From the NCBI GenBank assembly GCA_031459625.1, contig JAVKIH010000002.1:137272-201271 (forward strand): a DNA stretch of 64,000 nucleotides, read 5' to 3'. Source of the stretch: Candidatus Geohabitans tengchongensis (GTDB lineage: Bacteria; Sysuimicrobiota; Sysuimicrobiia; Sysuimicrobiales; Humicultoraceae). Below, in pieces: positions 1 through 61,136 of the stretch (within the stretch, counting starts at the first letter, position 1; the number at the start of each line of letters is the position of its first letter). The notes beneath the pieces were generated by a model. The model was not told where the DNA came from. It searched no databases and saw only the letters and a program-made list of their open reading frames with translations. Position numbers and translations under genes: made by a program.

Positions 1-174
1 TCGCAGGAGCGCGTCCTGCACCAGGTCCTCCGCGGCCGCGCGGTTGCGGGTCAGTCGCAGGGCGGTGCGGTAGAGGCCGTCGAGGTATTCTTCGACCAGG
101 GCGGCGAACTGCTCGCGCGCCTCGGCACCGCCCACCGGCCCGACGCTCAGGGCCACGACCGCTCCGCGAGCCAT
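1..174 (-). CDS. ECF RNA polymerase sigma factor, SigH/SigR-like (5' part; runs off window)
   Basis: Manual translation from ATG at 174: MARGAVVALSVGPVGGAEAREQFAALVEEYLDGLYRTALRLTRNRAAAEDLVQDALLR, a sigma-70 region 2 pattern (LY..ALR.TRN...AEDLVQ). Not in the ORF track. Confidence 0.85.
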   Translation of the reverse strand, partial: MARGAVVALSVGPVGGAEAREQFAALVEEYLDGLYRTALRLTRNRAAAEDLVQDALLR

Positions 175-186
175 GATGGTCGAGCA

Positions 187-212
187 AACGAAAATGGCGA
201 AGGAGGTATTCC
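187..212 (-). promoter_or_regulatory. ECF (SigH/SigR-type) promoter GGAAT-N17-CGTT upstream of the sigma gene
   Basis: Minus strand reads GGAATacctccttcgccattttCGTT, ending 12 nt before the ATG. Confidence 0.6.
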
Positions 213-364: not shown

Positions 365-406
365 ATTCACCGCCGGGCCCGCGTCATTCACCGCCGAGCC
401 CGCGTC
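365..406. repeat. 21-bp tandem duplication (1 mismatch) covering the Rrf2 stop codon
   Basis: attcaccgccgggcccgcgtc / attcaccgccgagcccgcgtc. Confidence 0.85.
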
Positions 407-819
407 CCCACCCGGGCCCGGCCGCTCAGGTCCTCCAGCGTGAGCCGGTCCAGCACCCCCTCGGTCGCCGCCTTGATGGCCATCCAGACGGGTCGCAGGC
501 CGCAGCCGGGAGCGTACGCGCAGGCGGGATCGTCCACCTCCACGCACTCCCAGGGGGCCGCGCTGCCCTCCAGGACCTCGAACGCCTCGCGCAGGCGGAT
601 CTGGCCGGGCGGGCGGGCGAGCCGATGTCCCCCGGACGGCCCCCGCTTGCTGGTGACCAGCCCGGCGCGGCGCAGGCTGGCCATGAGCTGGTTGAGGTAC
701 GGCTCGGGAAGGCCCTGCCGGGCGGCAATGGCGTGGCTCTGCACGGGCCCCTCGCCGTAGTGGAGCGCCAGGTCGATGAGGGCCCGCAGGCCGTACTCCG
801 CCCGGCTGCTCACCTTCAT
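388..819 (-). CDS. Rrf2 family transcriptional regulator (IscR/CymR-like, three Cys)
   Basis: MKVSSRAEYGLRALIDLA...YLNQLMASLRRAGLVTSKRGPSGG; C-x7-C-x5-C; ATGA overlap with mec. Confidence 0.92.
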   Translation of the reverse strand: MKVSSRAEYGLRALIDLALHYGEGPVQSHAIAARQGLPEPYLNQLMASLRRAGLVTSKRGPSGGHRLARPPGQIRLREAFEVLEGSAAPWECVEVDDPACAYAPGCGLRPVWMAIKAATEGVLDRLTLEDLSGRARVGTRARR

Positions 820-1229
820 GGCGACACCGCCTCCAGCTCGAGCGGCTCCTCCGTAACGGCCCCGTCGACGATGCGGAACCCCCGCAGGACGGGCCCCGCA
901 CGGTCCTTCAAGGATACGATAACGTACACCGCGTCGGGGTAGAAGGCCCTGGCCACGTCCGTCCGCGAGGGGTAGGCGTCGGAGGCGGTGTGGGAGTGGT
1001 AGATGCCCACCAGGTCCAGCCGCTCCTCGTCCAGCTCCCGCAGGATCGCCAGGAGCTGCCGGTCGTCCAGTCGGTAGGTATAGGGGCTCTCGTCCACGTT
1101 GCGGCCCCGGTAGACGCGCAGCACGCGCCCCTCCCGCCCGGCCAGGAGCCCCACGCACTCGTTGGGGTAGGTCTCCTGCGCGTGGGCCACGATCTCGTCG
1201 GCCTGGGCCCGGGTCAGGCGCAGGGGCAC
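816..1229 (-). CDS. mec: JAMM/MPN+ (M67) metallopeptidase, CysO-cysteine peptidase-like
   Basis: ECVGLL and HSHTASDAYPSRTD (HxH-x7-S-x2-D JAMM motif); GTG start after GAGGG. Confidence 0.9.
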   Translation of the reverse strand: MPLRLTRAQADEIVAHAQETYPNECVGLLAGREGRVLRVYRGRNVDESPYTYRLDDRQLLAILRELDEERLDLVGIYHSHTASDAYPSRTDVARAFYPDAVYVIVSLKDRAGPVLRGFRIVDGAVTEEPLELEAVSP

Positions 1230-1239
1230 GGCAGCGCCC

Positions 1240-2223
1240 TCAGGGCTCGGCGAAGACCCGTGTGGAGAGGTAGCGGTCGCCGCCGTCGGGGAGGACGACC
1301 ACCACCACCCCCTCCCCGGCCTCACGGGCCACCTGCAGGGCGGCCACCATGGCGGCCCCCGCAGAGGGGCCCACCAGCCACCCTTCCTCGCGGGCCAGGC
1401 GCCGCGTCATGGCGTAGGCCGCCTCGGTGGCCACCGCGATTACCCGGTGGTGGACGGAGGGGTCGTAGATACCGGGGACGATGGAGGTGGCCATGTGCTT
1501 GAGCCCCTCCAGCCCGTGCAGCGGCCCGTCCGGCTCCACGCCCACGACCTGCACGTGCGCCAGGGCCTCGCGCAGCCGTCGGCCCGCCCCCACGAGCGTC
1601 CCCGAGGTCCCCAGCCCGGCCACGAAGTGCGTCACCCGCCCGCCGGTCTGGACCAGGATCTCCGCCCCGGTGGTGTCGTAGTGGGCGCGCCAGTTGGCCG
1701 GGTTGTTGTACTGGTCGGGCATGACGTACCGGTCGGGGGCGGCGGCGAAGCGTGCCCGGGCCACCCGGATCGCCCCGTCCGAGCCCTCCAGCGGGTCGGA
1801 GAGGATCACCTCCGCGCCGTAGGCGCGGATCAGCCGCTTGCGCTCCTCGCTGACGTTGGCCGGGAGCACCAGCTCGACGCGGTAGCCCTTGGCCGCCCCG
1901 ATCATGGCGTAGGCGATCCCGGCGTTGCCCGACGAGGAGTCGAGCAGGATCCGGTCGGGGGTGAGGAGGCCGCTGCGCTCCGCCTCCTCGATCATGCGCA
2001 GGACGGGGCGGTCCTTCACCGAGCCGCCGGGGTTGAACCACTCCGCCTTGGCCAGCAGCGTGACCCCGGGGGGGACCTCCGGCAGGCGGGTGACCTGCAA
2101 CAGCGGCGTGTTGCCGATCCGCTCCAGGAGCCTCTGTCCCAGGCGGACGGCCGCCCCGGCCTGGCGGGCCGACGGGGCGGCGGGGAGGGGGTCGGGCGGC
2201 GGCGAGCCCACGGGCGGACTCAC
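1240..2223 (-). CDS. cysM: PLP-dependent cysteine synthase (CysM-like)
   Basis: IGNTPLL, NPGGSVKDR (PLP Lys), SSGNAG, DQYNNPAN, GTSGT, DGGDRYLS; start (GTGA overlap) uncertain. Confidence 0.88.
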   Translation of the reverse strand: MSPPVGSPPPDPLPAAPSARQAGAAVRLGQRLLERIGNTPLLQVTRLPEVPPGVTLLAKAEWFNPGGSVKDRPVLRMIEEAERSGLLTPDRILLDSSSGNAGIAYAMIGAAKGYRVELVLPANVSEERKRLIRAYGAEVILSDPLEGSDGAIRVARARFAAAPDRYVMPDQYNNPANWRAHYDTTGAEILVQTGGRVTHFVAGLGTSGTLVGAGRRLREALAHVQVVGVEPDGPLHGLEGLKHMATSIVPGIYDPSVHHRVIAVATEAAYAMTRRLAREEGWLVGPSAGAAMVAALQVAREAGEGVVVVVLPDGGDRYLSTRVFAEP

Positions 2224-3065
2224 TCGTCCAGCAGGAGCGTGGGCTCGGCGTAGTAGCGCACGCGGTGGGCCAGCAGCCGGGCGTGCAGCAGCTCGTGCAG
2301 CGCGGCGTTCTTCGCCTCGAGCGAGTTCGCCCCCCGGAGGATGTCGAGCGGCAGGTTGAGGCGCAGGACGCGGTTGGGGATGACGTGCCGGGTGATCCCC
2401 GTCGGCAGCTTCTCCGGCAGCTCGGCCAGGCGCAGGATCTCCTCCTTGGCGAACGGGGGGAAGACCGCCACCGCCGCCACGCGCCCGTACTCCGCCGCCA
2501 GCTGGGGGAGGTCGGGCGTGGGCACCCGGTAGATCGCCTGCCGGCCGGCGTACGCGCTCACCAGGGCGCGGACGGCCCGCACGCGCGCCTGCAGCTCCCT
2601 GCCGTCCCGCACGCCCCACACCCCGTCGGGCGTGACGAGCCCGCAGGCCGCCCGCCGCGTGGCCAGCGCGTCGAGCAGCACCTCGACGCTATCCAGCCGC
2701 TCCACCCGCGCCGAGGGGAGCGCGGCCAGCACGTCGCCGTCCTCCTGCAGCAGGTGGTGCCAGACCTCTAGGCGCACCGCCGCGTCGGCGTAGTCCACCA
2801 CCTGCAGCACGTGCGCCGGGAGCCCCAACCGGCGTAGGGCCACGGTCCGGTTGGCGCCGTCCAGGACCACGTAGCCGCCCCGCGGGAGCGGCGCCGCCAC
2901 CGGCGGGTTCCGCAGCACGTCCTCCTGGCGCAGGCGCTCCACCAGCGCCTCGACGCGGCGGGGGTCGGCGTCCTCGTGCAGCCGCACCGCCTCCGCGTCC
3001 ACCACGCGCAGCGGGGGCAGGAGCTGCCCCGAGGGGAGGCGCAGCACGGCACGGGCCTCGCTCAC
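2220..3065 (-). CDS. ParB/Srx-fold protein, SbnI/SerK-like free L-serine kinase (O-phosphoserine forming)
   Basis: LHED.P.R, LRNPP, YVVLDGANR..AL..LG, W-H-H, LPTGITRH.I..R.L.LNLPL and C-terminal RYY.E..LL match the SbnI pattern recalled from memory over the full length. Confidence 0.7.
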   Translation of the reverse strand: MSEARAVLRLPSGQLLPPLRVVDAEAVRLHEDADPRRVEALVERLRQEDVLRNPPVAAPLPRGGYVVLDGANRTVALRRLGLPAHVLQVVDYADAAVRLEVWHHLLQEDGDVLAALPSARVERLDSVEVLLDALATRRAACGLVTPDGVWGVRDGRELQARVRAVRALVSAYAGRQAIYRVPTPDLPQLAAEYGRVAAVAVFPPFAKEEILRLAELPEKLPTGITRHVIPNRVLRLNLPLDILRGANSLEAKNAALHELLHARLLAHRVRYYAEPTLLLDE

Positions 3066-4762
3066 CGTCCGAGCTTCCTCGCCAGGTGGTCGATGACGTC
3101 GATCTTCGTCACGATCCCGACGACCCGTCCCCGGTCCACCACCACGGCGGCGTTGGCGTTGAGGAAGACCTCGGCCAGGTCGTCCACCGGCGTGTCCGGG
3201 CTGACCACCGGCGGGGCGGGGTCGACGATGGGGGTGATGGGGTCGTCGGGTCCGTGCCCGCCCTCCAGCAGGTAGGAGAGGAGGTCGACCTCGCTGATCA
3301 TGCCGACGAGCTGGCCGTCGGCCACGACGGGGAGCTGGCTGACGTCGAACTCCTTCATCTTGGCGATGACGGCCCGCACCGGGTCGGCGGGCCCGGCGGT
3401 GATCAGGGCCAGCCCCTTGGCGCCCAGCAGCTCGCTCACCGTCCCCAGGTCGGCCTCGAGGAAGCCGTGCTCCCGCATCCAGTCGTCGGAGAAGATCTTG
3501 GAGAGGTAGCGCAGCCCGGAGTCGGGGAGGATGACCACGACGCGCCGCCCCTCCCCGTGGTCGGGGAGTCCGCGCAGGTACTTGAGCGCGCCGGCCACCG
3601 CGGCCCCGCTGCTCCCGCCGCACAGCAGCCCCTCCTCCCGCACCAGGCGGCGGGTCATGGTGAAGGCCTCGCGGTCGGTCACCGGCACGACCTCGTCCAC
3701 GACGCTGAAGTCCATCGTCCCGGGGAGGAAGTCCTCGCCGATCCCTTCCACTTTGTAGGTGTGCGGCTCGGGCAGGCGGCCGGTGCGGAAGTACTCGGTG
3801 TAGATCGACCCCACCGGGTCCACCCCGACGCAGACGAGCCCGGGGTGCCGCTCCTTGAGGTAGCGCGCCGCGCCGGAGGCGGTCCCGCCGGTCCCCAGGC
3901 CGACCACCAGGACGTCGAGCCGCCCGCCGGTCTGCTCCCACAGCTCCGGCCCGGTGGTCTCGTAGTGGGCCGCGGGGTTGGCGGGGTTGTGGTACTGGTC
4001 GGCGTAGAAGGCGTTGGGCAGCTCCTGGGCCAGGCGGCGGCTGACGCTGTAGTAGGAGCGCGGGTCGTCGGGGGGCACCGCCGTGGGCGTGATGACCACG
4101 CGGGCCCCGAAGGCGCGCAGGAGGCGGATCTTCTCCTCCGACATCTTGTCGGGCATGACGAAGACGCAGCGGTAGCCGCGCACCGCCGCCGCCATGGCCA
4201 GGGCGACGCCGGTGTTGCCGGAGGTGGCCTCCACGATCACGCCGCCCGGCCGCAGCTTCCCCTCCTGCTCGGCCTGCCGGATCATCCGGATGCCGATGCG
4301 GTCCTTCACCGACCCGCCGGGGTTGAGGAACTCCAGCTTGGCCAGGACCTCGGCCCGCACGCCGCGCACGACCTTGTGCAGGCGCACCAGCGGCGTGTGC
4401 CCGATGAGGTCGAGGACGGTGTCGGCGATGGCCTCCCGGCGGGGAGTGGCCGCCCGCGCCGCGTCCGGCGTCGGGGCCCGCGTGGTGCGGGCCCCGCCGG
4501 CCATGGCCGGGATGATGGAGACCTCGTCCCCCTCCCCCACCGGCGTCTCCTGGCCGGCCTGGGTGCGGATCTCGGTCCCGTTCACGAAGATGTTGATGTA
4601 GGTGCGCACCTCTCCGGAGGCGTCCAGCACCTGCGCGCCCACCTCGGGGTAGGCCCGGGTCAGCGCCTGGAGGACCTCACGGACGGTGCGGCCGGGCACC
4701 TCCAGCCGGCTCTGCCCACCGGTGTGGCGCCGCAACGGGGCCGGCACGAAGACCGTCGGCAT
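3062..4762 (-). CDS. Fusion: N-terminal MoaD/ThiS/CysO ubiquitin-like sulfur carrier plus cystathionine beta-synthase with C-terminal CBS pair
   Basis: aa1-90 beta-grasp ending IIPAMAGG, then linker, then IGHTPLV...NPGGSVKDRIG...PDKMSEEK...LPDSGLRYLSKIF.DDWM and CBS domains; no stop after GG. Confidence 0.88.
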   Translation of the reverse strand: MPTVFVPAPLRRHTGGQSRLEVPGRTVREVLQALTRAYPEVGAQVLDASGEVRTYINIFVNGTEIRTQAGQETPVGEGDEVSIIPAMAGGARTTRAPTPDAARAATPRREAIADTVLDLIGHTPLVRLHKVVRGVRAEVLAKLEFLNPGGSVKDRIGIRMIRQAEQEGKLRPGGVIVEATSGNTGVALAMAAAVRGYRCVFVMPDKMSEEKIRLLRAFGARVVITPTAVPPDDPRSYYSVSRRLAQELPNAFYADQYHNPANPAAHYETTGPELWEQTGGRLDVLVVGLGTGGTASGAARYLKERHPGLVCVGVDPVGSIYTEYFRTGRLPEPHTYKVEGIGEDFLPGTMDFSVVDEVVPVTDREAFTMTRRLVREEGLLCGGSSGAAVAGALKYLRGLPDHGEGRRVVVILPDSGLRYLSKIFSDDWMREHGFLEADLGTVSELLGAKGLALITAGPADPVRAVIAKMKEFDVSQLPVVADGQLVGMISEVDLLSYLLEGGHGPDDPITPIVDPAPPVVSPDTPVDDLAEVFLNANAAVVVDRGRVVGIVTKIDVIDHLARKLGR

Positions 4763-4763
4763 C

Positions 4764-5903
4764 TCACGACTCCTCCAGCGCCTGTCGCAGGTCCTCCACG
4801 AGATCGTCGGGGTGCTCCAGGCCCACCGACAGGCGGAGCAGGCCCGGATCGACGGCCAGCGGCGAGGCGGCCAGCGAAGCGTGGGTCATCGAGGCCGGAT
4901 GGTCGATGAGCGACTCCACCCCGCCGAGGCTCTCCGCCAGCACGAAGAGGCGGGTGCGCGCGGCCACCCGCCGCGCCGCCTCCTCCCCGCCGCGCACGAT
5001 GCAGGAGACCATCCCCCCAAACCCGCTCATCTGCCGGGCGGCCAGCGCGTGCCCCGGGTCGTCGGGCAGCCCCGGGTAGAAGACGCGGGCCACCCGCGGG
5101 TGCTCGCGCAGGAACGCCGCCACCGCCGCGGCGTTGGCGCAGTGGCGCTCCATGCGCACGGCCAGGGTGCGCAGGCCGCGCAGGACCAGCCAGCAGTCCA
5201 GCGGCCCGGGGACGGCGCCGGCGGCGTTCTGGTAGAAGCGCAGGCGCTCGGCCAGGTCGTCGCGCGCGGTCACCACGGCACCCCCCACGACGTCGGAGTG
5301 GCCGCCCAGGTACTTGGTCGTGGAGTGGATGACCAGGTCGGCGCCCAGCCGCAGCGGCCGCTGCAGGTAGGGGGAGGCGAAGGTGTTGTCCACGGCCACG
5401 AGCGCCCCGTGGGCGTGCGCCAGCTCGGCGATGCGGGCGATGTCCAGCACCCGCAGGTAGGGGTTCGTGGGCGACTCCACCAGCACGAGGCGCGTGGTGG
5501 GCCGCAGCGCCCGCTCCACCGTCGCCAGGTCGCGCATGTCCACGAAGTCGCTGGCGATCCCGTACCGGTGCAACACGCGCACCAGCAGCCGGTAGGTGCC
5601 GCCGTAGACGTCGTCCGGCGCCAGCACGTGGGCTCCGGGATCGAGCAGCGTGGTCACCGCGGTGATCGCCGCCATCCCCGAGGCGAAGGCCACCCCGTGC
5701 GCCCCCTCCTCGAGCGAGGCCAGCGCCCGCTCCAGGGCGGTGCGCGTGGGGTTGGCGGTGCGGGAGTATTCGTAGCCGCGGTGACGCCCGGGCGCCTCCT
5801 GGGCGTAGGTGGAGGTCTGGTAGATGGGCACGACCACGGCGCCGGTGGCGGGATCCGGAGCCTGGCCGTCGTGGATGGCGCGGGTCTCGAACCGGTGCGG
5901 CAT
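4764..5903 (-). CDS. Cystathionine gamma-lyase/gamma-synthase (Cys/Met metabolism PLP enzyme)
   Basis: [53 protein letters not shown]. Confidence 0.92.
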
Positions 5904-6634
5904 CAGGCCTCCGGACGGGTGACCGCCGCGGGAACGGGCACGGCGGCGCCCTCGCCCGCCGGCCCCAGCGCTCTGGCCACGGCGTCGGCCGTGACGGGGC
6001 GCAGGCGCACGCCGAAGACCTCGGCGAACCGGCGCGCGTAGGCGTCGGCCACCACGTCCAGGGCCACCGGCCGCCCCAGCTCCTCGGCCAGCGAGGTGAC
6101 GGGACGCCCCAGTCCGCACGGGTCGATCCACCGGAACTGGCCGAGGTCGGTGGTCACGTTCAACGCCATGCCGTGCATCGTCACCCGGCGCTTCACCGCC
6201 ACGCCCACCGCCGCCAGCTTGCGGCCGTCCACCCATACCCCCGGGTAGCCCGGCTCGCGCCCGGCCGCCACGCCGAAGTCCCCCGCCATGCGGATGATCG
6301 ACTCCTCCAGCAGGCGCATGAACCGCACAACGTCCTCTCCCAGCCTGCCCAGGTGGAGGATCGGGTAGGCAACGAGCTGGCCCGGTCCGTGGTAGGTGGC
6401 CTGCCCCCCGCGCTCCACCTCGTAGACCTCGATCCCCTGCTGCGCCAGCGTCTCGCGCGACACCATCAGGGTCCCGCCCCGCCGCCCCAGGGTGATGACC
6501 GGGGTGTGCTCGAGCACCAGCAGCACGTCCGGCAGGAGACCCTGCTGGCGGGCCGGGACCAGGCGTCGTTGCAGGTCCCACGCCTCCCGATAGGGGGTGA
6601 GCCCGGGGAGCCGCAGGAGGAGGGCATCGGTCAC
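5903..6634 (-). CDS. lipB: Lipoyl(octanoyl) transferase
   Basis: EHTPVITLG, RGGQATYHGPGQLVAYP, KLAAVG, HGMALN, PCG. Confidence 0.92.
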   Translation of the reverse strand: MTDALLLRLPGLTPYREAWDLQRRLVPARQQGLLPDVLLVLEHTPVITLGRRGGTLMVSRETLAQQGIEVYEVERGGQATYHGPGQLVAYPILHLGRLGEDVVRFMRLLEESIIRMAGDFGVAAGREPGYPGVWVDGRKLAAVGVAVKRRVTMHGMALNVTTDLGQFRWIDPCGLGRPVTSLAEELGRPVALDVVADAYARRFAEVFGVRLRPVTADAVARALGPAGEGAAVPVPAAVTRPEA

Positions 6635-6640
6635 AGCGCT

Positions 6641-6646
6641 ATTCTA
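6641..6646 (-). promoter_or_regulatory. -10 element TAGAAT 6 nt before the lipB GTG (leaderless transcript likely)
   Basis: Minus strand TAGAATagcgctGTG; no Shine-Dalgarno sequence. Confidence 0.55.
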
Positions 6647-6659
6647 GCAAGAGCCCGGG

Positions 6660-6900
6660 AGGCCGCGGACGCCGGCAGAGGCGGCGGACTTGCGCCAGGC
6701 CTGGGACGAGATCCAACCGGGGATGAGGTCCGGCGCACGGCGGACCGCCTCCTCCGGGTCCACCCGTTGCGAGCGGCGGACGCCCTGCAGCTGGCCGCCG
6801 CACTCCTCCGGGCCGTCGACGACGCGCCGAAGGGTTCGTCTGCCTGGATGACCGCCTGCGCGAAGCGGCGCAGCTCGAGGGCTTTGCGGTCCTCCCCGAG
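6660..6900 (+). pseudogene. Degraded PIN-domain (VapC-like) toxin fragment with two frameshifts
   Basis: DLRQAWDEIQP / DEVRRTADRLLRVHPLRAADALQLAAAL / FVCLDDRLREAAQLEGFAVLP in successive frames; no start codon or antitoxin. Confidence 0.75.
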
Positions 6901-7001
6901 CCCCGGCACGCCGCCGCCAGGCTCACGGGAATGGTTGGACCCGCACCAGGCGCGTCGATGTCGTCAGCCCCGGTGGTCGACACCCGGGCGGTGCACTGCG
7001 G

Positions 7002-8101
<1,100 letters not shown>

Positions 8102-8105
<4 letters not shown>

Positions 8106-9709
8106 GGCTCTGCCCGCCCGACCAGCGTGGCCAGGGAGAGCGAGGAGAGGAGGACGAGCAGCAGGGCCGGCGCGGCGGCGCGGGCGAAGAAACCCTCCCC
8201 CGCCGCCGACCAGACGCGGGTGGCCAGCGTCTCCATCCCGATAGGGCTCAGCAGCAGCGTGGCCGGGAGTTCCTTCATCGTCGTGAGGAAGACGAGCGCT
8301 CCCGCGGCGGCGACGCCCGGACGCACCAGCGGCAGCGTCACCGACCAGAGGACCTGGGTCGGAGTGCGGCCCAGGGTGCGCGCCGCCTCTTCCTGGGACG
8401 GCTGGACCCGCGCCAGGGCGGCGTGCAGCGCCCCGGCCGCCTGGGGCAGGAAGAGCACGGCGTAGGCGACGAGCAGGGCCGCGGGCGTCTGGTAGAGGGC
8501 CGGCACCACGCGCGCCGTGAAGAAGACCAGCGCCAGGGCCACGACGATCCCCGGCAGCGCGTAACCGGCGTAGACGATGCGCCCCGCCAGCAGGGCCAGC
8601 GGACCGGAGAAGCGCGCCGCCAGCAGGGCCAGCGGGAAGGCCGCCGCCACCGTCACCACCGCGCTGGCCGCCCCCAGCGCCAGCGAGGTCAGCGCCGGGC
8701 GCCACGTCAGGACCAGCGGCTCCCCGTGCGCCAGGCCCAGGACGAGCCAGTAGGTGAGCACACCCAGCGGCAGGAGGACGGCGCAGAGCGTCACCGCCGC
8801 GCAGCCGAGCAGCGCGGGCCACCGCCAGGGGCCGAGGGGCACGAGGGGCGGGAGGCGGCCCGGCCCCACGCCGACCCGGTGCTGCCGGCCGCGCCCGGGC
8901 CGGTCGGCGGCCAGCAGGAGGGCCCCCGTGAGCGCCACGAGCACGAGGGCCAGCGCGGCGGCGCCGTGGCGGTCGAAGGACGCCTGGTACTGGACGTGGA
9001 TGGCCGTGGTGAAGGTCTCGAGCTGCATCATCGAGACCGCGCCGAAGTCGGCCAGGGTGTAGAGCGCCACCAGCAGCGCGCCGGCGCGGATCCAGGGCCA
9101 CAGCTGCGGCAGGACGGCCCGGCGGAAGGCGCGCCAGCCGCGCTCCCCCAGCGTGCGCGCCACCTCCTCCAGCGCCGGGTCGAGCCCGCGCCACCCCGCC
9201 CGCACGCTCAGCAGGACGTAGGGATAGGTGAAGAGGGTGAGGACGAGCCAGGCGCCCGGGAACCCGTACAGGTCGGGGAGACGCTCCACCCCGGCCAGGC
9301 GGTGGAGGAGCTGCTGGAGAAGGCCGGTCGGCCCGAGCGCGGTGGCCACGACGAACCCCCCGACGTACGACGGCACCACCAGGGGCAGCGCCGTGACCAC
9401 CCGCCACAGGCGCGCCCCCGGGAGGTCGGTGCGGGTAGTGAGCCAGGCCAGGGGGACGGCCAGGAGGACTGTGGAGGCGGTGACCACCCCGGCCAGCAGC
9501 ACGGAACGCAGCAGGATGCGGCCGGTGCGGGGGCTCCACAGGAGGTCCCAGACTTCGGGGCCGGCGCCGGCCGCCCGCACGACCAGGTAGGCCACCGGCA
9601 GGAGCACCGCCGCCGCCACCACCGCAGCCAGCGCCACGAGCGGTGGGACAGCCGCGGCGTCGCGGCGCCGCCCGGCAGCCGCGGACTCGAGGGCGCGGAG
9701 CTCTAGCAC
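8102..9709 (-). CDS. Fe(III) ABC transporter permease (FbpB-like, duplicated membrane domain)
   Basis: Two EAA loops (EEVARTLG, EEAARTLG), ADFGAV, KELPATLLL. Confidence 0.9.
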
Positions 9710-9769
9710 CGGGTCCTGGCTCGCGCGCGCCGGGTCAGGATCTGCGTCGCAGACCGCCTCCCCGTGACC

Positions 9770-10804
9770 CTACAGCACGCCCGTCTCGCGCAGCAGCCGC
9801 AGCGTCTCCTCCAGGGCTTGCAGGTGGTTCAGGTCGACCCCGGGGGTGCGGATGCGGTCGAGCGGCACGAGGCGCGGGTCCGCGGGCACCCCGGCGACGA
9901 GCGGGTACTCGAAGGTCTCGCGGGCGAAGTACCGCTGCGCCTCGGGCGAGAGGAAGAAGGCGACCAGCCGCTGCGCCTCGGCGCTCTGGCGCGAGGTGTC
10001 CACGATCCCCGCCCCGGCCACGTTCACCAGGTTGCCGGCGTCCGGACCCGGGAAGTGGTAGTTGCGCACCGGGAAGGCCTCGCCGCGCTCCTCCAGGAAC
10101 CGGTAGAGGTAGTAGTGGTTCACGAAGCCCACGTCGACCTCGCCGGCGCCGACTGCGGCCACGATGGCGGTGTTGTTGCGGTAGACGCGGGGGGCGTTGG
10201 CCTTGACGGCCAGCAGCCACCGCCGCGTGCGCTCCGTCCCCCACAGGAGGCGCAGCGCGGTGACGTGCGCCTGGAAGGAGCCGTTCGTGGGCGCCCAGCC
10301 GATGCGCCCGCGCCAGCGCGGGTCGGCGAAGCCGGCCAGGGAGTCGGGCAGGTCGGCCGGGCGCAGCCGACGGGTGTTGTAGGCGACCACCCGGGCGCGC
10401 CCGCTCACCCCCACCCAGAGCCCGTCCTTCGACCGGAAGCGCGGCTCCACCCGGGCGAGGAGGCTGTCCGGCAGGCGGCGCAGCCGGCCGGCGTAGGCCA
10501 GCGCGCCGAGCGCTCCGGCGTCCTGGGCGATGTAGACGTCGGCGGGGCTGTTCGGTCCCTCCTCCATGATGGTGGCGGCCAGCTCGGCGGTCTCGCCGTA
10601 GCGGACCCGCACCCCGATCCCCGTGCTCTGGCTGAACTGCTGCAGGAGCGGGCCGATCAGCTCCTGGGTGCGGCCGGAGTAGATGGTGAGCGCGGGCGCC
10701 TGCGCGAGGACCGCCGCCGGTCCCCCCGGCCAGGCCAGGACCAGCGCGAGCAGTCCCCCCACCGCCGCGACACCTCCCCACCTCGCCTCTCCGAACCTGC
10801 GCAC
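9770..10804 (-). CDS. Fe(III) ABC transporter substrate-binding protein (FbpA/FutA-like)
   Basis: Signal peptide, TIYSGR, SPADV, NHYY iron-ligand motif, FEYP. Confidence 0.9.
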   Translation of the reverse strand: MRRFGEARWGGVAAVGGLLALVLAWPGGPAAVLAQAPALTIYSGRTQELIGPLLQQFSQSTGIGVRVRYGETAELAATIMEEGPNSPADVYIAQDAGALGALAYAGRLRRLPDSLLARVEPRFRSKDGLWVGVSGRARVVAYNTRRLRPADLPDSLAGFADPRWRGRIGWAPTNGSFQAHVTALRLLWGTERTRRWLLAVKANAPRVYRNNTAIVAAVGAGEVDVGFVNHYYLYRFLEERGEAFPVRNYHFPGPDAGNLVNVAGAGIVDTSRQSAEAQRLVAFFLSPEAQRYFARETFEYPLVAGVPADPRLVPLDRIRTPGVDLNHLQALEETLRLLRETGVL

Positions 10805-10904
10805 CGCCTGACCACCCCCCTCCTGGCTCCCTGCGACGCTTCCCGGCCCGCCCGTCCTCGCGCCGGGCCGGAGAGCCGGCCCGGGCTGGAGAACCGGCCG
10901 CGGC

Positions 10905-10960
10905 TAGGCTATCCTTATTGTTGACCTGGGAACAACAGAATGGCCGAACAATCGTTGTTA
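10905..10960 (-). promoter_or_regulatory. Iron-uptake promoter (TTGTTC-N18-TAGCCT) plus 7-1-7-like operator GCCGAACAATCGTTGTTA
   Basis: Same 18-mer and same 38-bp offset to TAGGCTA recur at 62056-62111 upstream of FTR1. Confidence 0.7.
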
Positions 10961-10971
10961 GGACTCTACGG

Positions 10972-11430
10972 ATGCTGACGGCGGCCGAGCTGCGGGAGCG
11001 GTTCCAGGCACGCGGGCTACGCATCACCCCGCAGCGCGACCTGCTCTTCCGCCTGCTGGAGGAGCTGGAGGGGACGCACCCCACGGCCGAGACCCTCCAC
11101 CTGCGGGCCGCCCGGGTGATGCCCTCGATCTCCCTGCGGACGGTCTACGCCATCCTGGAGGAGCTCGCGGAGGTCGGCGCGGTCCGCCCGCTGGAGCTGG
11201 GCACCGGCAGCAAGCGCTTCTGCACCACCGTGACCCGCCACCACCACCTGGTCTGCGACCGCTGCGGGAAGGTGCTGGACGTCTTCGTGAACGTCGGGCC
11301 GGTGGAGATCCCGCCCGAGCAGGCCCGCGGCTTCTGCGTCACGGAGCAGTCCCTGGTCTTCCGCGGTGTCTGCGCGGACTGTCAGCGCATGGCGCCATCG
11401 GCCTCTGCCGAGCCAGCGGCCCGGCCCTGA
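10972..11430 (+). CDS. Fur family transcriptional regulator (PerR-like)
   Basis: RITPQR, HPTAE, ISLRTVY, HHHLVCDRCG, CADC; AGGA RBS before ATG 10972. Confidence 0.92.
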   Translation: MLTAAELRERFQARGLRITPQRDLLFRLLEELEGTHPTAETLHLRAARVMPSISLRTVYAILEELAEVGAVRPLELGTGSKRFCTTVTRHHHLVCDRCGKVLDVFVNVGPVEIPPEQARGFCVTEQSLVFRGVCADCQRMAPSASAEPAARP

Positions 11431-44238: not shown

Positions 44239-45039
44239 TCACCGCTGGCAGGTGGGGCACCAGAACGACGGACGGCCGCCCAGGCGCCCCTGCCGGATCG
44301 GCGTGCCGTCGCGCGGGCAGGGCTGGCCGGCCCGCCCGTAGACCGCCAGCGGGAACCGCCCGTGCCGTCCGCGGGCGTCGACGAAGTCCGGCTCGCCGCC
44401 CAGGCGGACGGCTTCGCGCAGCACGGTGCGCACTGCGTCGTAGAGCGCCGCCCGCTCGGCCTCACCGAGGGACTCCACCGGCCGGTGGGGCGCCAGGCCG
44501 GCCCGGTGGGCGATTTCGTGAGCCCAGAGGTTGCCGATCCCGGCAACGCGCGCCTGGTCGGTGAGGACCGTCCAGACGGCGCCCCGGGCCCCCGCCAGGC
44601 GCGCCTCGAAGGCGGAGCGCGTGAAGGCGCGGCTCAGCGGGTCGATCCCCAGCTCCTCGACGCCGGGCACCTCGTGGTCCCGCAGCCGCACCAGGTGGAT
44701 CTCGCTGAGCTGCAGCTCCCGGAACTCAAGGGCGCTGCCGTCATCGAAGGTGAGGAGGAGCGCGGTCTCCCGGTCGGGAGCGGGAGGGCGCCGGTGGAGC
44801 CGCACCGCGCCCCAGAGTTTGAAGTGGAAGCGCAGCGCGTGCCCGTCCACACGCAAGACGAGCGACTTCCCCAGCCGTTCCAGGCGCTCCACGCGCTTCC
44901 CGCGCAGCGCCCGCGCCAGGGCGGGGGCAGTGTGGGTGCGCACCGCCACCGGCCGCAACACCTCCACCGCGGTGATGCGCCGGCCCAGGATGGGGCGCAG
45001 GGTGCGGCGGGCGGTCTCGACCTCGGGCAGCTCGGGCAC
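44239..45039 (-). CDS. Fpg/Nei DNA glycosylase (copy 2)
   Basis: PELPEVE, GIGNLWAHE H2TH, CPRD...CPTCQ. Confidence 0.88.
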   Translation of the reverse strand: MPELPEVETARRTLRPILGRRITAVEVLRPVAVRTHTAPALARALRGKRVERLERLGKSLVLRVDGHALRFHFKLWGAVRLHRRPPAPDRETALLLTFDDGSALEFRELQLSEIHLVRLRDHEVPGVEELGIDPLSRAFTRSAFEARLAGARGAVWTVLTDQARVAGIGNLWAHEIAHRAGLAPHRPVESLGEAERAALYDAVRTVLREAVRLGGEPDFVDARGRHGRFPLAVYGRAGQPCPRDGTPIRQGRLGGRPSFWCPTCQR

Positions 45040-45041
45040 GG

Positions 45042-45908
45042 CTAGCGCAGGAGGCGGGAGAGGCGGCGGTCGGCGTAGACCTTGCCGCCGGTCTGGCAGG
45101 TCGGACAGTAGGTCGTCTCGTGCTCGGCGTAGTAGACGGCGGCAAGGAGCGTCCCGCAACGCGGGCAGGGCTCGCGGGCGTGGCGGTGGACGCGCAGCAG
45201 GTCGAGCGGCTCGCGCTGCGGCCAGGTGCCGGCGAAGCGGCGGCGGTGCGCCTCCACCGCCCGGTCGAGCACGATGCGGACGGCCTCGTAGAGGCGGCGG
45301 CGGGCTGCGTCATCCAGCGTGGCGGTGATGGCGAAGGGGGAGCAGCGGGCCTCCCAGAGGATCTCGTCGGCATAGGCGTTGCCGATGCCGGCCAGGAACG
45401 TCTGCGTGGTGAGGAAGCGCTTGGCCTGGGTGCGCGCCCGGTCCAGGAGGGCGTCCAGCACGTCGGGAGTGAAGGCCGCCTCCAGCGGCTCCACGCCCAA
45501 CGCCGCGACCGGCTCGAGGCGCTCCGCCTCGGCGGTGGGGCGCACCCACAGCCCCGCCCGCTTCCTGGGGCCCGGCTCGACCAGGCGCACCTCTTCGCCG
45601 CCGTCCAGCCGCAGCACGAGGGCGACGTCGCGCGCCGGCCGGCGCGCGCCCGGGGCGAGCAGCAGACGGCCATCGCGCTTCAGGTGGAGGATCAGGGTCA
45701 GTCCCCCGCTCAGGTCGAGGAGGAGGAGCTTCCCGCGGCGGCGCGCGGCCTCCACGCGGCGGGGCGGCACGGCCGCGACGCTGCCGAGCGGCGGCTCCAC
45801 GGTCTTGAGCAGGGAGGGGGCCAGGACGTGGACGCCGGTGACGGGGCGGCCGACGACCTTCGCCCTGAGCGTCTCCACCAGGACCTGCACGAAGGGCAGC
45901 TCAGGCAT
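45042..45908 (-). CDS. Fpg/Nei DNA glycosylase (copy 1)
   Basis: MPELPF, RRGK, GIGNAYADE, CPRC...CPTCQ, ADRRLSRLL. Confidence 0.9.
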   Translation of the reverse strand: MPELPFVQVLVETLRAKVVGRPVTGVHVLAPSLLKTVEPPLGSVAAVPPRRVEAARRRGKLLLLDLSGGLTLILHLKRDGRLLLAPGARRPARDVALVLRLDGGEEVRLVEPGPRKRAGLWVRPTAEAERLEPVAALGVEPLEAAFTPDVLDALLDRARTQAKRFLTTQTFLAGIGNAYADEILWEARCSPFAITATLDDAARRRLYEAVRIVLDRAVEAHRRRFAGTWPQREPLDLLRVHRHAREPCPRCGTLLAAVYYAEHETTYCPTCQTGGKVYADRRLSRLLR

Positions 45909-54330: not shown

Positions 54331-55083
54331 CTACGGACCGCCCCTCCCGGCGCGGCGGCGCCGCAGCACGCCGCGCACCGCCTCCAGGCTCACGCCGCGC
54401 TCGACCAGCAGCACCAGGGTGTGGTAGAGGAGGTCGGCCGCCTCCTCGGCCACCCGCTCATCGCGCTCGGCGACGGCCGCGCGCACGAGTTCTCCGGCCT
54501 CCTCACGGACCTTCGCCCCGATGCGCGCGCGCCCGGCTCGCAGGAGGGCGGTGGTGTAGGACCCTGCGGGCAGCTCGGCACGGCGGCGGACGAGCAGCGC
54601 AAAGAGCTCGTCCAGGATGTCGGGCGCCGCTCCCCCGGGTGTCGCCGGCGGGAGGAGGGTCGAACCATCGGGAGCGCGGAAGAAGCAGGAAGGCTCGCCG
54701 GTGTGGCAGGCGGGGCCGGTCTGGTCCACCAGCAGCAGCAGAGCGTCGCCGTCGCAGTCCACCCGCACCTCGCGCACCGTCTGGGTGTGGCCGGAGGTCT
54801 CGCCCTTGCGCCACAGCGCCGCTCGGCGGCGGCTCCAGTACCAGGCCTGCCCGGTGGCCAGCGTGCGCGCCAGCGCCTCGGCGTTCATCCACGCCACCAT
54901 GAGGATCCGACCGGTGCGCGCCTCCTGCGCGACGACCGGCAGAAGACCGTCCGGGCCGAACTGCACGGCGCGCGTCCGCGCGTCCTCCGCAGCCCGCGCG
55001 TCCTCGGCAGGCCGCCCATCCTCGACCGACCGCACCGGCATGGGGTCGGGCTGCGGCCTGCCGGCGGCGTCCGTCCCGCTCAT
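54331..55083 (-). CDS. hisIE: Bifunctional PR-AMP cyclohydrolase / PR-ATP pyrophosphatase
   Basis: [40 protein letters not shown]. Confidence 0.92.
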
Positions 55084-55868
55084 GGGATCGGTCCTCCCAC
55101 CGGCGTCTCCCGGCGCACCGCCACGCCCCGCGCCTCCAGGTAGCGCTTCACCTCGTCGATGCGCACCGCCCCCGTGTGGAAGATGGACGCGGCCAGGGCG
55201 GCATCGGCCTTGCCCGCGGTGAGGACGGCGTGGACGTGCTCCGGGGTCCCCGCCCCGCCCGAGGCGATGACCGGGATCGCCACGGCCTCGGCGACGGCGC
55301 GCGTGAGCGCCAGGTCGTAGCCCTCCTGGGTGCCGTCGCGGTCGATGCTCGTCAGCAGGATCTCCCCGGCGCCCCGCGCGGCCACCTCCTGCGCCCACGC
55401 CACCGCGTCCCGCCCGGTGGGGCGGCGGCCGCCGTGGGTGTAGACCTCCCACCCGTCGCCGGCGGCGCGCCGCTTCGCGTCGATGGCCACGACCACGCAC
55501 TGGCTGCCGAAGCGGTCGGCCGCCTCCTCGACCAGCGCCGGGTCGGCCACCGCCGCCGTGTTGACCGCCACCTTGTCCGCGCCCGCCCGCAGGAGCCGCC
55601 GCACGTCCTCCACCGAGCGCACCCCGCCGCCGACGGTCAGCGGGATGGTGAGACGGGCCGCGGCCGCCCGCACCGCCGCCTCGAGCGTCTCCCGGCCCTC
55701 CACGGAGGCCGTGATGTCGAGGAAGACCACCTCGTCCGCGCCCTCCCGGTCGTAGAGCGCGGCCAGCTCGGCGGGGTCGCCGGCGTCACGCAGGTTCACG
55801 AAGCGGACACCCTTCACCACCCGGCCGGCATCCACGTCCAGGCAGGGGATGATGCGCGCGGCTACCAT
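55080..55868 (-). CDS. hisF: Imidazole glycerol phosphate synthase cyclase subunit
   Basis: [35 protein letters not shown]. Confidence 0.95.
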
Positions 55869-56608
55869 GCGCCTCCTCCCGTGGCCGTTCCCGTTCCGAC
55901 AGCCATCAGGTCAACCCGTCCCTCGTACAGCGCCCGGCCCACGATGGCCCCGGCCGCGCCCGCCTCCGCCAGCGCCGCCAGGTCCTCGGGGCGGCCCACG
56001 CCCCCGGCCGCCAGGACGGGGACCTGCACAGCCCGGCAGAAGGCCCGGACCGCCTCCACGTCCGGTCCTGTCAGCGTCCCGTCCCTGCTCACCGCCGTGT
56101 AGATGAAGCGCCGGATCCCCGCGTCGACCAGCCGCCGGGCCAGGTCGAGCGGGGCGTCCCCGGCCGCCCTCCACCCGTCCACCATCGCCCGCCCGCCCCG
56201 CACGTCCAGGGCCGCAGCGACCCGCTCGCCGAACCGCCCCGTCGCCGCAGGGGCCAGGGCCAGGGCGGCGGTGCCGAGCACCACGCGGGCCACGCCGGCA
56301 GCGAGCAGCCGCTCGACGTCCTCGAGCGTGCGCACGCCGCCGCCGGCCTGCACCGGCACGGGGACCGCCCGGGCGATCGCCTCGATGAGGTCGCGGTGCA
56401 CGGGACGGCCGGCGAAGGCGCCATCGAGGTCCACCACGTGCAGCCAGGGAGCGCCCCGCTGTGCCCAGGTCCGCGCCACCGCCACCGGGTCGCCACTGTA
56501 GACGCGCTCGCGGGCGGGATCCCCCTGGACGAGGCGGACGCAGCGGCCGGCGCGCAGGTCCACCGCCGGGATCACCGCGAACGTGCGGAGCGGCGCGGGG
56601 AGCGTCAT
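55862..56608 (-). CDS. hisA: ProFAR isomerase
   Basis: [37 protein letters not shown]. Confidence 0.93.
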
Positions 56609-57294
56609 GGCACGGGCGCCGGATGGCGGGGCTCGCCGCCCAGCCGGCCCGCAGCGGCCAGGCGGACGATCCCTTCCAGCAGGCGGCGGCCGGTCGCCCC
56701 GCTCTTCTCCGGGTGGAACTGCACCCCGAGGAGCGCTCCACGGCCCACCACTGCCGCCACGGGGCCGCCGTAGTCGGTGACGGCCAGGACATCCTCCGTG
56801 CGGCCCGGGCGCACGACGTAGCTGTGGACGAAGTAGGCCCACGCGCCCTCGAGGCCGTCCAGCACCGGGTGCGCGGCCGTGCAGCGCAGGCGGTTCCAGC
56901 CCATGTGCGGGACCTTCAGCTCCGCCGGCAGCCGGACCACCTCGCCGGGGAGCAGCCCCAGCCCCTCCGCCCCGCCGCCTTCGCCGCTGCGCTCGAAGAG
57001 CAGCTGCATCCCCAGGCAGACGCCCAGCAGCGGGGTGCCCCGTCGCACCTCCTCCACCAGCCAGGCCGGAAACCCGGCGGCGGCCAGACGGGCCATGGCC
57101 GGCGGGAAGGCGCCCACACCGGGCAGCACCAGCAACGCCCACGGACCGGCTTCCGGCGCGGGCGCGGGCAACACCGTCACCGCCGCACCCGCGCGGGTGA
57201 GCGCGCCCACCAGGCTGAAGAGGTTGCCGGCCCCGTAGTCGATCACGCCGACGCGCGGGGCCTGCGGCACGGACGGGGCGCCCGGAGCGCTCAC
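56605..57294 (-). CDS. hisH: Imidazole glycerol phosphate synthase glutaminase subunit
   Basis: IDYGAGN, PGVG, GVCLGMQ, YFVHSY, QFHPEKS. Confidence 0.93.
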   Translation of the reverse strand: MSAPGAPSVPQAPRVGVIDYGAGNLFSLVGALTRAGAAVTVLPAPAPEAGPWALLVLPGVGAFPPAMARLAAAGFPAWLVEEVRRGTPLLGVCLGMQLLFERSGEGGGAEGLGLLPGEVVRLPAELKVPHMGWNRLRCTAAHPVLDGLEGAWAYFVHSYVVRPGRTEDVLAVTDYGGPVAAVVGRGALLGVQFHPEKSGATGRRLLEGIVRLAAAGRLGGEPRHPAPVP

Positions 57295-57917
57295 AGCACG
57301 CCCTTCGTCGAGGGGATGGCCTCGCCGCGCACCCGGGTAGCCCGTCCCAGGACGATCCCCGTCCCCTTGAAGGCCGCCTCCAGCACGTGGTGCGCGTTCT
57401 CGCCGTGCCACTGCACCAGGTGGAGCGTGACCGCGGCGTGCGTGGTGAAGGCACGGAAGAACTCCCGCGCGAGGTCGGTGGGGAACGTGCCGAGGAGCTG
57501 CGGCGGCACGGTCAGCCCGTAGTGCAGGTAGGGGCGGCCGCCCACGTCGACGGCGGCCAGCACGAGCGCGTCGTCCATGGGCACGTGCTGCGAGGCGAAG
57601 CGCACGATCCCCTGCCCGCTGCCGACGGCCTCGCGCAGGGCCTGGCCCAGCACGATCCCCGTGTCCTCGACGGTGTGGTGGGGGTCGACCGCCAGGTCGC
57701 CCCGCGCGTGGACCTCCAGGTCGAAGCCGCTGTGCCGGGCCAGGGCGGTGAGCATGTGGTCGAGGAAGGGCACCCCGGTCGCCACCACGCTCTCGCCGGC
57801 ACCGTCCAGGGTGAGCGCCACGGTCACCGCCGTCTCGGCGGTGCGGCGCTCCACGCGCGCCAACCGCAGGGCGCGCTCCCCGCCGCCCGCTGCCGACGCG
57901 CGCGCCCCCGGCGGCAT
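57291..57917 (-). CDS. hisB: Imidazoleglycerol-phosphate dehydratase
   Basis: FLDHML, DPHHTVED, NAHH..EA.FK, PSTKG. Confidence 0.95.
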   Translation of the reverse strand: MPPGARASAAGGGERALRLARVERRTAETAVTVALTLDGAGESVVATGVPFLDHMLTALARHSGFDLEVHARGDLAVDPHHTVEDTGIVLGQALREAVGSGQGIVRFASQHVPMDDALVLAAVDVGGRPYLHYGLTVPPQLLGTFPTDLAREFFRAFTTHAAVTLHLVQWHGENAHHVLEAAFKGTGIVLGRATRVRGEAIPSTKGVL

Positions 57918-59065: not shown

Positions 59066-59090
59066 CACGCGGGGCTCACGAACGGCCGAT

Positions 59091-59720
59091 TCATGTGGCC
59101 TGCACCGCAGGCGCCACCGCCTCGAGCAGCGCCCGCACGCCCGGCGCCTTGAGCCGCAGGCTCACCCGGTTTACCACCAACCGGGCGGTGGAGCGGAAGA
59201 CCTCGGCCACCTCGACCAGGCGGTTCGCCCGCAGCGTGCGACCGGTCATCACCAGGTCGACGATGGCGTCCGCCAGGCCCACCTGCGGGGCCAGCTCCAG
59301 CGCCCCGTGCAGGACGATGACCTCCACCGGACGGCGGGCCTGCTCGAAGAACCGCGCCGTCACGCGCGGGTAGCGGGTGGCCACGCGCAGCGGGGCCGAG
59401 CCGGCGAGCAGCGCCTCCCGGCCGGCCGGCACCGCCACCACAGCCCGGCAGGCGCCGAACCCCAGGTCGGCCAGCTCGTAGACGTCGGCCTCCTGCTCGA
59501 GGAGCAGGTCCTGGCCGACGATGCCCGCGTCGGCCGCGCCGTGCTCCACGTACGTGAGGATGTCGAGCGGCTTGGCCACGAGGATGCGCCCGCCCTCCGG
59601 CCCCGGCAGGACGAGGGCGCGCTCGGGCGGCGGGGCGTCGAGCAGCCGGAGCCGCTGCAGCAGCGCCACGGCCTCGGGGAAGAGGCGGCCGGTGGGGACG
59701 GCCAGCGTCAGTGGCTCCAC
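59091..59720 (-). CDS. hisG: ATP phosphoribosyltransferase, short form
   Basis: AVPTGRL, DI.TYV..G.AD.GI.G.D, RVATRYP, GALELAP..GLADAIVD.V.TG.TL..N. Confidence 0.93.
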   Translation of the reverse strand: MEPLTLAVPTGRLFPEAVALLQRLRLLDAPPPERALVLPGPEGGRILVAKPLDILTYVEHGAADAGIVGQDLLLEQEADVYELADLGFGACRAVVAVPAGREALLAGSAPLRVATRYPRVTARFFEQARRPVEVIVLHGALELAPQVGLADAIVDLVMTGRTLRANRLVEVAEVFRSTARLVVNRVSLRLKAPGVRALLEAVAPAVQAT

Positions 59721-61015: not shown

Positions 61016-61026
61016 CGAGACTTCAC

Positions 61027-61093: not shown

Positions 61094-61136
61094 GTCAACC
61101 CGGTGGGGCGGCAGGGCGGCCGCGGCGCGAGGTCGG

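Follow-up and report, generated by a model that had tools for sequence, protein, structure and literature searches.

In mycobacteria, the mec-cysO-cysM genes and MoeZR provide a carrier-dependent route to cysteine (PDB 3dwg; PMC3227635, PMC12910592; papers are cited here by accession and for the excerpts available), and the mycobacterial type of CysM has been called unique to actinobacteria (PMC9547175). In the archaeon Thermococcus kodakarensis, free serine is instead phosphorylated by the ADP-dependent kinase SerK, and the resulting O-phosphoserine (OPS) is converted to cysteine without serine acetyltransferase; genetic evidence supports this route, its partner enzyme is CysK, and the excerpt mentions no carrier (PMC5120207; PDB 5x0b and others). 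No clear-cut SerK homologues were found in bacteria (Makino, 2016; PMC5120207). A carrier module outside Actinobacteria, including in Chloroflexus, was predicted as operon type 4c, which combines a ubiquitin-like protein (Ubl), an E1, a JAB protease and a cysteine synthase (Iyer et al., 2006; PMC1779556). Here we describe an operon from the bacterium Candidatus Geohabitans tengchongensis (phylum Sysuimicrobiota), at positions 388-6634 of a 64,000-nucleotide stretch of contig JAVKIH010000002.1 (positions 137,272 to 201,271 of the forward strand; hereafter the window), in which a putative serine kinase gene stands among genes for a CysO-like carrier, CysM and a Mec-like JAMM protease. We think it probable that this operon makes cysteine from serine phosphorylated by the kinase and from sulfur borne on the carrier, which the JAMM protease would mature.

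As in mycobacteria, there is a CysO-like carrier, a CysM-type pyridoxal phosphate (PLP) enzyme whose counterpart of R220 is basic, a JAMM protease and, elsewhere in the genome, a MoeZ with a rhodanese domain (PMC3227635, PMC12910592). Unlike the mycobacterial system as excerpted, the cluster contains a serine kinase, lipB and an Rrf2 gene; cysE is not found in the phylum, the carrier is tailed or fused, and CysM lacks a C-terminal extension. In the available text of the type 4c description, 'ParB', 'cystathionine' and 'Rrf2' have 0 occurrences, and neither a kinase nor a fusion to cystathionine beta-synthase (CBS) appears (PMC1779556). The combination had been annotated initially as not known from any described system, which agrees with our finding no account, in the full-text literature, of CysO/CysM/Mec operons that include a serine kinase or of a carrier::CBS fusion (supplements and most subscription journals lay outside coverage). 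The excerpt of the phylum paper contains no occurrence of 'serine' or 'cysteine' (PMC11604079). What appears to be new is the kinase wiring and the carrier fusion; the parts are already known, each with a characterised relative. The open reading frames (ORFs) of the operon and their domains are as follows.

5903-6634, minus strand: lipB, octanoyltransferase (TIGR00214 and PRK14345, both over cut-off)
4764-5903, minus strand: accessory cystathionine gamma-lyase/synthase of MetB type (PRK07811, 571 bits against a cut-off of 513)
3062-4762, minus strand: Ubl::CBS fusion ORF of 566 residues, with ThiS, PALP and CBS domains in one frame (Pfam/NCBIfam)
4493-4762, minus strand: CysO-like sulfur carrier domain of the fusion, residues 1-90, ending in an internal PAMAGG (Pfam ThiS)
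4430-4492, minus strand: linker after the Gly-Gly, about 20 residues of Ala/Arg/Thr/Pro, with no stop codon; a JAMM cut is predicted at the GG boundary
3062-4429, minus strand: accessory cystathionine beta-synthase with CBS (Bateman) domains (TIGR01137, 522 against a cut-off of 510)
2220-3065, minus strand: SbnI/SerK-family protein, predicted free L-serine kinase (from profile, predicted fold and motifs)
1240-2223, minus strand: cysM, CysM-type cysteine synthase; predicted substrates OPS and thiocarboxylated carrier
816-1229, minus strand: mec, Mec-like JAMM metalloprotease with E24, H78, H80, S88 and D91 (Prok-JAB)
388-819, minus strand: rrf2, Rrf2-family regulator with C92, C100 and C106 (TIGR00738, over cut-off)

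All seven ORFs have a GC content at third codon positions of 0.93-0.98, and ORF coordinates and junctions bear out the span and tight coupling given in the initial annotation: from lipB to rrf2, the genes meet in a TGATG overlap, a 1-nt gap, GTGA, GTGA, a 10-nt gap and ATGA. The start of cysM is uncertain, its Pfam match beginning only at residue 34. Of the names first assigned, LipB, CBS (TIGR01137) and Rrf2 stand, each over the cut-off of its family model, whereas 'gamma-lyase' was an assumption: the protein is over the cut-off of the gamma-synthase model PRK07811 and under that of the gamma-lyase model PRK07671. The window was also rightly said to lack cysE, an E1-like activator and a sulfurtransferase, as the 54 other window ORFs scanned contain no cysE, E1 or rhodanese domain. 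The description of the operon as self-contained fails, because MoeZ, with its rhodanese domain, and a two-domain rhodanese are encoded on other contigs (C27 and C1, respectively), and serA and a serC-like gene are present in the genome as well.

The gene order recurs in relatives, among them a named record of Candidatus Sysuimicrobiota (L145), and is therefore more than chance. The kinase is present in 59 of 61 relatives, in 88 of 94 phylum genomes and in 53 of the 54 high-quality ones. Around all relatives with a kinase match we delimited 58 loci, many of which end at contig edges; they contain mec (57), rrf2 (53), cysM (49), lipB (44), carrier (43), CBS (21) and lyase (18), with the kinase gene directly before cysM in 49. 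Order and content recur across these loci, which disposes of the concern, raised at the outset, that the set might not be conserved together in any relative. We regard the cluster as genuine and as conserved in the phylum at large; its core consists of carrier, kinase, cysM, mec and rrf2, with the transsulfuration genes as accessories.

The kinase gene has no Pfam match and falls under the cut-offs of the curated models for SbnI (72 bits against 350) and SerK (43 against 380). Searched against the PDB, a profile of 37 family members finds only two proteins at E 0.1: SbnI, matched from end to end (E 1.7e-28), and SerK (E 1.4e-11). The predicted structure (predicted local distance difference test, pLDDT, 93) superposes on SbnI 6nr6 over the full length with template modelling (TM) scores of 0.73/0.80, and on SerK with 0.69; the two-domain fold, a domain like those of ParB and sulfiredoxin (Srx) plus a second domain, runs across the entire protein. 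ParB and sulfiredoxin structures cover the N-domain only (TMq ~0.24), and the fold rules out either identity. The motifs are H30-E31, D69-G-A-N-R73, W102, H104 and P221-x-G-x-x-R226-H227. E31 is aligned with SerK E30, which PDB entries 5x0e/g/j/k carry in mutated form, and both E31 and D69 are invariant in all 56 alignment rows that cover them; W102, H104 and R226 are likewise invariant where covered. We take D69, the Asp of the DG motif, to be catalytic. The closest structure and profile match is thus SbnI of Staphylococcus (5uje, 5ujd, 6nr6), and its catalytic Glu and Asp positions are kept here. The setting differs: SbnI reportedly feeds staphyloferrin B synthesis, whereas the neighbour here is a cysteine synthase. 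From alignment and model, the protein represents a distinct subfamily rather than an SbnI or SerK orthologue, and likely works like SbnI; 310 homologues, labelled Armatimonadetes or Armatimonadota, were found at E 0.001 or better among 7997 candidates scored. If true, this reading gives a function to a family without a Pfam match.

Serine is probably activated by phosphorylation, as had been proposed from the sequence alone: the fold and motifs predict the activity, and no cysE was found in any of 60 phylum genomes, each at least 90% complete (threshold E 1e-15), whereas the control search detected cysE over cut-off in 8 of the 14 genomes used as reference. The present genome, 94% complete, likewise has no cysE over cut-off.

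We propose the following pathway. The kinase, whose fold and catalytic acids are in place, would convert Ser and ATP (or ADP) to OPS. Mec would cut after Gly90, at the buried Gly-Gly, to free the carrier and CBS. MoeZ, whose gene lies on another contig, would adenylate the carrier, and its rhodanese domain would thiocarboxylate it. CysM would then form carrier-Cys, from which Mec would release cysteine, as their mycobacterial counterparts do. An optional add-on of CBS plus the lyase would likely recycle homocysteine to cysteine. Sulfate assimilation was considered as the sulfur source and rejected, as this genome has no NIR_SIR match, the mark of sulfite reductase; the donor is therefore probably sulfide-derived sulfane sulfur. 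Two matches resembling sulfide:quinone reductase (SQR), at 24-32% identity, are a lead only. Near moeZ, at G000:C27:14644-23993 of this genome (G000), lie lipA and ORFs that resemble SufA/IscA and NifU by their motifs, read by eye. The module may also feed sulfur to Fe-S and lipoate supply, to judge from lipB, the three cysteines of Rrf2 and the SUF genes that accompany the kinase in Chloroflexota.

Outside the phylum, we took the best 80 of 252 related stretches and set aside five with the Sysuimicrobiota layout, leaving 75, mostly from Chloroflexota. A cluster of kinase, carrier, cysM and moeZ occurs in 13 of the 75, all labelled as Anaerolineae or close Chloroflexota, in an order differing from that in Sysuimicrobiota. 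Some outside loci also have rhodanese or SUF genes (sufS in 8, sufU in 10); the count of 34 of 75 for DUF59 is an upper bound, the carrier and DUF59 ORFs having been merged via one fusion. Ten further cysM loci from kinase-bearing genomes have carrier, mec or moeZ alongside in 8 cases, and a cysM orthologue is present in 29 of 36 outside genomes. Other aspects of this survey count against the proposed pathway: most of the 75 loci have no cysM nearby, the orthologue is absent from 7 of the 36 genomes, cysE is over cut-off in 12 of the 36 (Chloroflexota and two Latescibacterota-labelled genomes), and 9 of the 14 with a carrier in the kinase cluster have cysE. The presence of cysE in these genomes implies that the module is an additional route there, not a replacement. 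At two outside loci with cysE near cysM, cysE follows a separate CysK-like gene. In seven Chloroflexota loci (L108, L110, L112, L114, L120, L147 and L161), the kinase gene ends SUF clusters for Fe-S assembly, which comprise sufS, sufU and, in some, also sufB/D, a Rieske ferredoxin and DUF59.

CysM carries the PLP lysine motif SVKDR and lies under the cut-offs of both models, narrowly for cysKM (342 against 344) and more clearly for TIGR01138 (358 against 394). Of the 60 phylum genomes, 53 hold an orthologue at 62% identity or more. Its K242 is aligned with mycobacterial R220, and the position is basic in 50 of 50 rows (K in 48, R in 2); we presume that R220 has a role in the mycobacterial enzyme. 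This does not settle the sulfur donor, and several features of CysM speak against carrier dependence. K242 is not diagnostic, enterobacterial CysM having Arg there too. The whole-length score is slightly higher with enterobacterial CysM than with the mycobacterial enzyme, and the top PDB matches are enterobacterial. The 16 extra C-terminal residues of mycobacterial CysM, an extension that presumably closes the active site and has a role in donor choice, are missing: the alignment stops at its residue 307 of 323, with the query reaching 325 of 327. In relatives, the C-termini are similar ends or unrelated tails. On the carrier side, the best PDB match is mycobacterial CysO (3dwg_C, E 3.5e-15), and this beta-grasp domain ends in a Gly-Gly within a PAMAGG that is invariant among 34 aligned carriers. 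A co-fold of carrier and CysM scored 0.59 against 0.00 for the best control, with contacts agreeing by at least 75% between runs and a partner pLDDT of at least 88. Among solved pairs, 116 of 157 come up to the mark, as do 2 of 215 mismatched ones; only 18 of those solved pairs, but both mismatches, scored 0.60 or less. We treat this as weak support; a complex like it (3dwg) is already solved, and the prediction may be memory. Carrier dependence of CysM is suggested mainly by the gene neighbourhood, in which the genetic link of carrier, JAMM protease and E1-rhodanese is present.

The best-surviving alternative, which we nevertheless consider unlikely, is that the kinase supplies OPS but CysM takes its sulfur from free sulfide or thiosulfate, in the manner of CysK2 or enterobacterial CysM, leaving the carrier and Mec to serve other sulfur transfers, for example homocysteine or molybdopterin synthesis. 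The enterobacterial PDB matches and the absent tail of CysM fit this idea. So does genus g3, in which the locus has no carrier gene: in six genomes, the kinase, mec and rrf2 remain, the carrier and this cysM are absent, and a 41%-identical cysteine synthase is encoded elsewhere, observations that also tell against our proposal. Another carrier indeed sits behind a threonine-synthase-like gene in this genome (G000:C25:10714-12542); this second Ubl is 43% identical and has AGG plus a 4-residue tail, and the pair resembles the MetM/MetO homocysteine route (PMC13759103 Table 2). A JAMM protease would in any case be required by MoaD::MoaE fusions, which all 5 relatives checked possess; this genome yielded no MoaE, probably owing to an assembly gap. 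Against free sulfide or thiosulfate stand the joint absence of carrier and cysM from the g3 loci, the match of the carrier to CysO, the weak co-fold support and the recurrence of this cysM clade in a second phylum, again flanked by carrier, mec or moeZ.

The genome search suggested in the initial annotation has been made: in addition to lacking cysE, this genome has serA over cut-off with serC-like and PspA-like neighbours on contig C26, and moeZ on C27. CysM could therefore be fed without the kinase here, which is a point against our proposal, as is the finding that all 60 phylum genomes hold other D-2-hydroxyacid dehydrogenases, possibly a short SerA. Across the phylum, serA is over cut-off in 38 of 60 genomes, and full-length serA was not found in 22. 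We examined the best serC-like locus in 15 of these 22, two of the matches being probable paralogues, and serA adjoins the serC-like gene in none; in 7 such loci whose ORFs were read (L194, L196, L198-L200, L202 and L204), serS directly follows the serC-like gene. Three genomes (G014, G021 and G015) have the kinase and cysM, and no cysE, full-length serA or second cysteine-synthase/CBS match was found in them. In these, the kinase appears to be the only identifiable source of OPS, unless another D-2-hydroxyacid dehydrogenase replaces SerA.

Conversely, the kinase might mainly route serine into central metabolism, from Ser through OPS to 3-phosphoglycerate via reversed SerC and SerA, with CysM drawing on the SerA/SerC pool and the kinase gene owing its position solely to shared regulation. 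Both roles are known for Thermococcus SerK (PMC5120207), a similar proposal exists for SerBK (PMC13759103), serA is widespread in the phylum, and many Chloroflexota kinases have no cysM nearby. Yet whole genera in which full-length serA was not found retain the kinase, the best 80 related stretches contain no serA- or serC-like match, and within the phylum the kinase gene so regularly precedes cysM that we regard this alternative as improbable.

The distance of the kinase from characterised enzymes is another point against our proposal. Identity to SbnI and SerK is ~20%, and the motif reads DGANR in all rows where SbnI and SerK have DGxHR. A protein with a ParB/Srx fold could have a substrate other than serine, perhaps homoserine destined for the MetM/MetO-like pair, perhaps an oxidised sulfur species; it could also regulate, like heme-sensing SbnI. 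In addition to the low identity and scores far under the SbnI and SerK cut-offs, the CTP binding of archaeal SerK-like fusion proteins (PMC12704722) and the frequency of Fe-S assembly genes as neighbours in Chloroflexota would be compatible with such a function. We judge it slightly more improbable still, as the full-length alignment with SerK and SbnI takes in the second domain, W102 and the T-R-H positions, sulfiredoxin accounts for no more than a quarter of the model, and the adjacent gene encodes an enzyme predicted to consume OPS. A further point against our proposal concerns expression: in one RNA run, the operon region has flat depth on a 41-kb contig and looks like DNA, so transcription is not shown.

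Thiocarboxylate formation requires a free C-terminal glycine. As encoded, the Gly-Gly of the carrier is not C-terminal, 476 residues following it in Ubl::CBS, and a carrier buried in this way would need proteolytic release, a point absent from the initial annotation. Relatives have 43 carriers, of which 41 are readable, two being lost to contig ends: in 33 a tail of 1-20 residues follows the GG, another 5 continue into CBS, and the remaining 3 stop at the GG. Since 33 of the 36 free carriers are tailed, Mec likely doubles as a maturing protease. Its sequence has the motif E...HxH-x7-S-x2-D, as given in PMC8832034, which is intact in all 57 full-length rows of 58, and tblastn finds no further copy of mec in the genome. 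That JAMM proteases cleave linear Ubl fusions such as MoaD-MoaE is established (PMC8832034). In that system (Deinococcus DR0402), the Ubl likewise lies behind an internal Gly-Gly and is activated by the cleavage that we predict here; it differs in that the partner is the carrier's own enzyme, whereas here it may be the product of any downstream gene (CBS, kinase, MoeZ or DUF59).

Fusions of this kind occur beyond the present genome. Carrier residues 1-95, searched against database proteins of 311-991 residues, gave 28 matches among 210 candidates, comprising 23 Ubl::PALP/CBS, 3 Ubl::ThiF and 2 Ubl::kinase; one more carrier::kinase and one carrier::DUF59 fusion were found in addition. The fusion linkers are unrelated in sequence and length. 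An assembly artefact is ruled out for carrier::CBS, as the junction lies inside contigs from the runs of two other studies, with no indel there among those listed, and 23 clusters have the same architecture. On a tree of 21 CBS-bearing loci, the fused and free states change at least 4 times, gain and loss being indistinguishable. A single fused clade is rejected by the approximately unbiased (AU) test (p 6.6e-28; 21 rows with CBS, rows without CBS left out), for which the fused group was named before that tree and after an earlier FastTree; with shuffled labels, as few state changes arose in 53-63 of 500. Carrier and CBS are separate in 15 of 20 relatives having both. Functional coupling of carrier and CBS was rejected as the principal explanation, given these separate genes, the scatter of fused forms over more than one clade and the fusion of other partners. 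The carrier::CBS fusion is real but sporadic, occurring at four places on the tree. The simplest reading, from sequence and by analogy, is that Mec would trim whatever follows the GG; fusions would therefore be harmless, and the retention of mec in g3 would be explained. That the fusion instead stays uncut here, with the Ubl a passenger on CBS and the second Ubl on C25 doing the carrier's work, is very improbable: that Ubl exists, and fusion states change as a neutral accident might, but the fused domain retains PAMAGG and the carrier consensus, the C25 Ubl is itself tailed and would need the same protease, and JAMM cleavage of such fusions is known (PMC8832034). Two genus g27 genomes have a CysM::Mec fusion (L054:5625-7049 and L072:2407-3879), both together with a carrier::CBS that has a very short linker.

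We advance more tentatively, as a conjecture that may well fail, a broader form of the JAMM-matured, kinase-fed pathway. The whole phylum would dispense with serine acetyltransferase in making cysteine and rely on an unnamed subfamily of free-serine kinases, the sole serine-activating step in serA-less genera. The carrier would be a pro-protein able to bear any downstream enzyme as its tail, and one JAMM protease would act as a general polyprotein maturase (CysO::CBS, CysO::kinase, MoaD::MoaE), much as in eukaryotic ubiquitin-fusion processing. If true, the archaeal conversion of serine to cysteine by way of a kinase and the actinobacterial carrier-dependent synthesis would be united in one bacterial pathway, and an apparent cysteine gap would be closed for a widespread uncultured phylum. 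A specialist may find this tidy rather than startling, every part having a characterised relative. The fusion also offers a simple natural substrate for asking whether Mec-type proteases mature carriers from polyproteins.

The second route first proposed for the operon, from homocysteine, is confined to loci with both CBS and the lyase: CBS is found in 21 and the lyase in 18 of the 58 loci, and both are accessory. The best PDB match of CBS is the mycobacterial enzyme (E 4.7e-118), with the PLP core and Bateman domains, and mycobacterial Rv1079, a relevant comparison for the lyase/synthase, is bifunctional (PMC12910592). An AdoHcyase in the genome is a source of homocysteine, and a homocysteine methyltransferase domain lies at G000:C27:11011-11841. 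A genus g3 genome, G028, has a second locus (L177:3740-6928) with a lyase, a carrier-free CBS and a shortened or broken kinase copy.

The cysteines of Rrf2 noted initially are indeed conserved, all three being present in 53 of 54 rows (one row is truncated), and C92, C100 and C106 are possible Fe-S ligands. The protein is under the cut-offs of both IscR (72 against 208 bits) and CymR (100 against 195). Three further features flank the operon.

6641-6649, minus strand: extended -10-like element, TG-n-TAGAAT, 6 nt before the lipB start (read from sequence)
187-212, minus strand: GGAAT-N18-GTT promoter-like motif 5' of the downstream ECF sigma gene
1-174, minus strand: start of a SigH/SigR-like ECF (extracytoplasmic function) sigma factor gene, a conserved neighbour extending past the window edge

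The extended -10-like element is likely the start of a leaderless operon transcript, and an akin element lies just 5' of lipB in many relatives, not all. Behind rrf2, 52 of the 58 loci have the sigma gene, whose orthologues score best on TIGR02947, under cut-off. Of these 52 relatives, 40 have a motif of the GGAAT-N17-19-GTT type 5' of the gene, compared with 21 of 1560 random windows, and the sigma gene is probably its own transcription unit. We assume that GGAAT-N18-GTT is akin to the SigR/SigH consensus. After the sigma gene (window 1-212 and G000:C12 ~136300-137450) comes a small cysteine-bearing ORF resembling an anti-sigma factor, and just outside the window a run of N lies within an apparent duplicated start of the sigma gene.

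Directly upstream of the operon, at window 7005-11427 and divergent from the gene of a Fur-family regulator, is an iron-type ATP-binding cassette (ABC) transporter (ATPase, permease and binding protein). The stretch between its ATPase gene and lipB (window 6658-6930) is absent or different in the strains of runs X6 and X7, whose contigs skip ~6655-7041, and may be a small mobile or decayed gene. The window has no tRNA or Rfam matches. Elsewhere in it are two Fpg/Nei-family DNA glycosylase genes in tandem (44242-45908), a histidine biosynthesis operon (54334-62530) with a TrpR-like regulator upstream, presumably of the YerC/YecD type by name, and an FTR1 iron permease (61140-62102).

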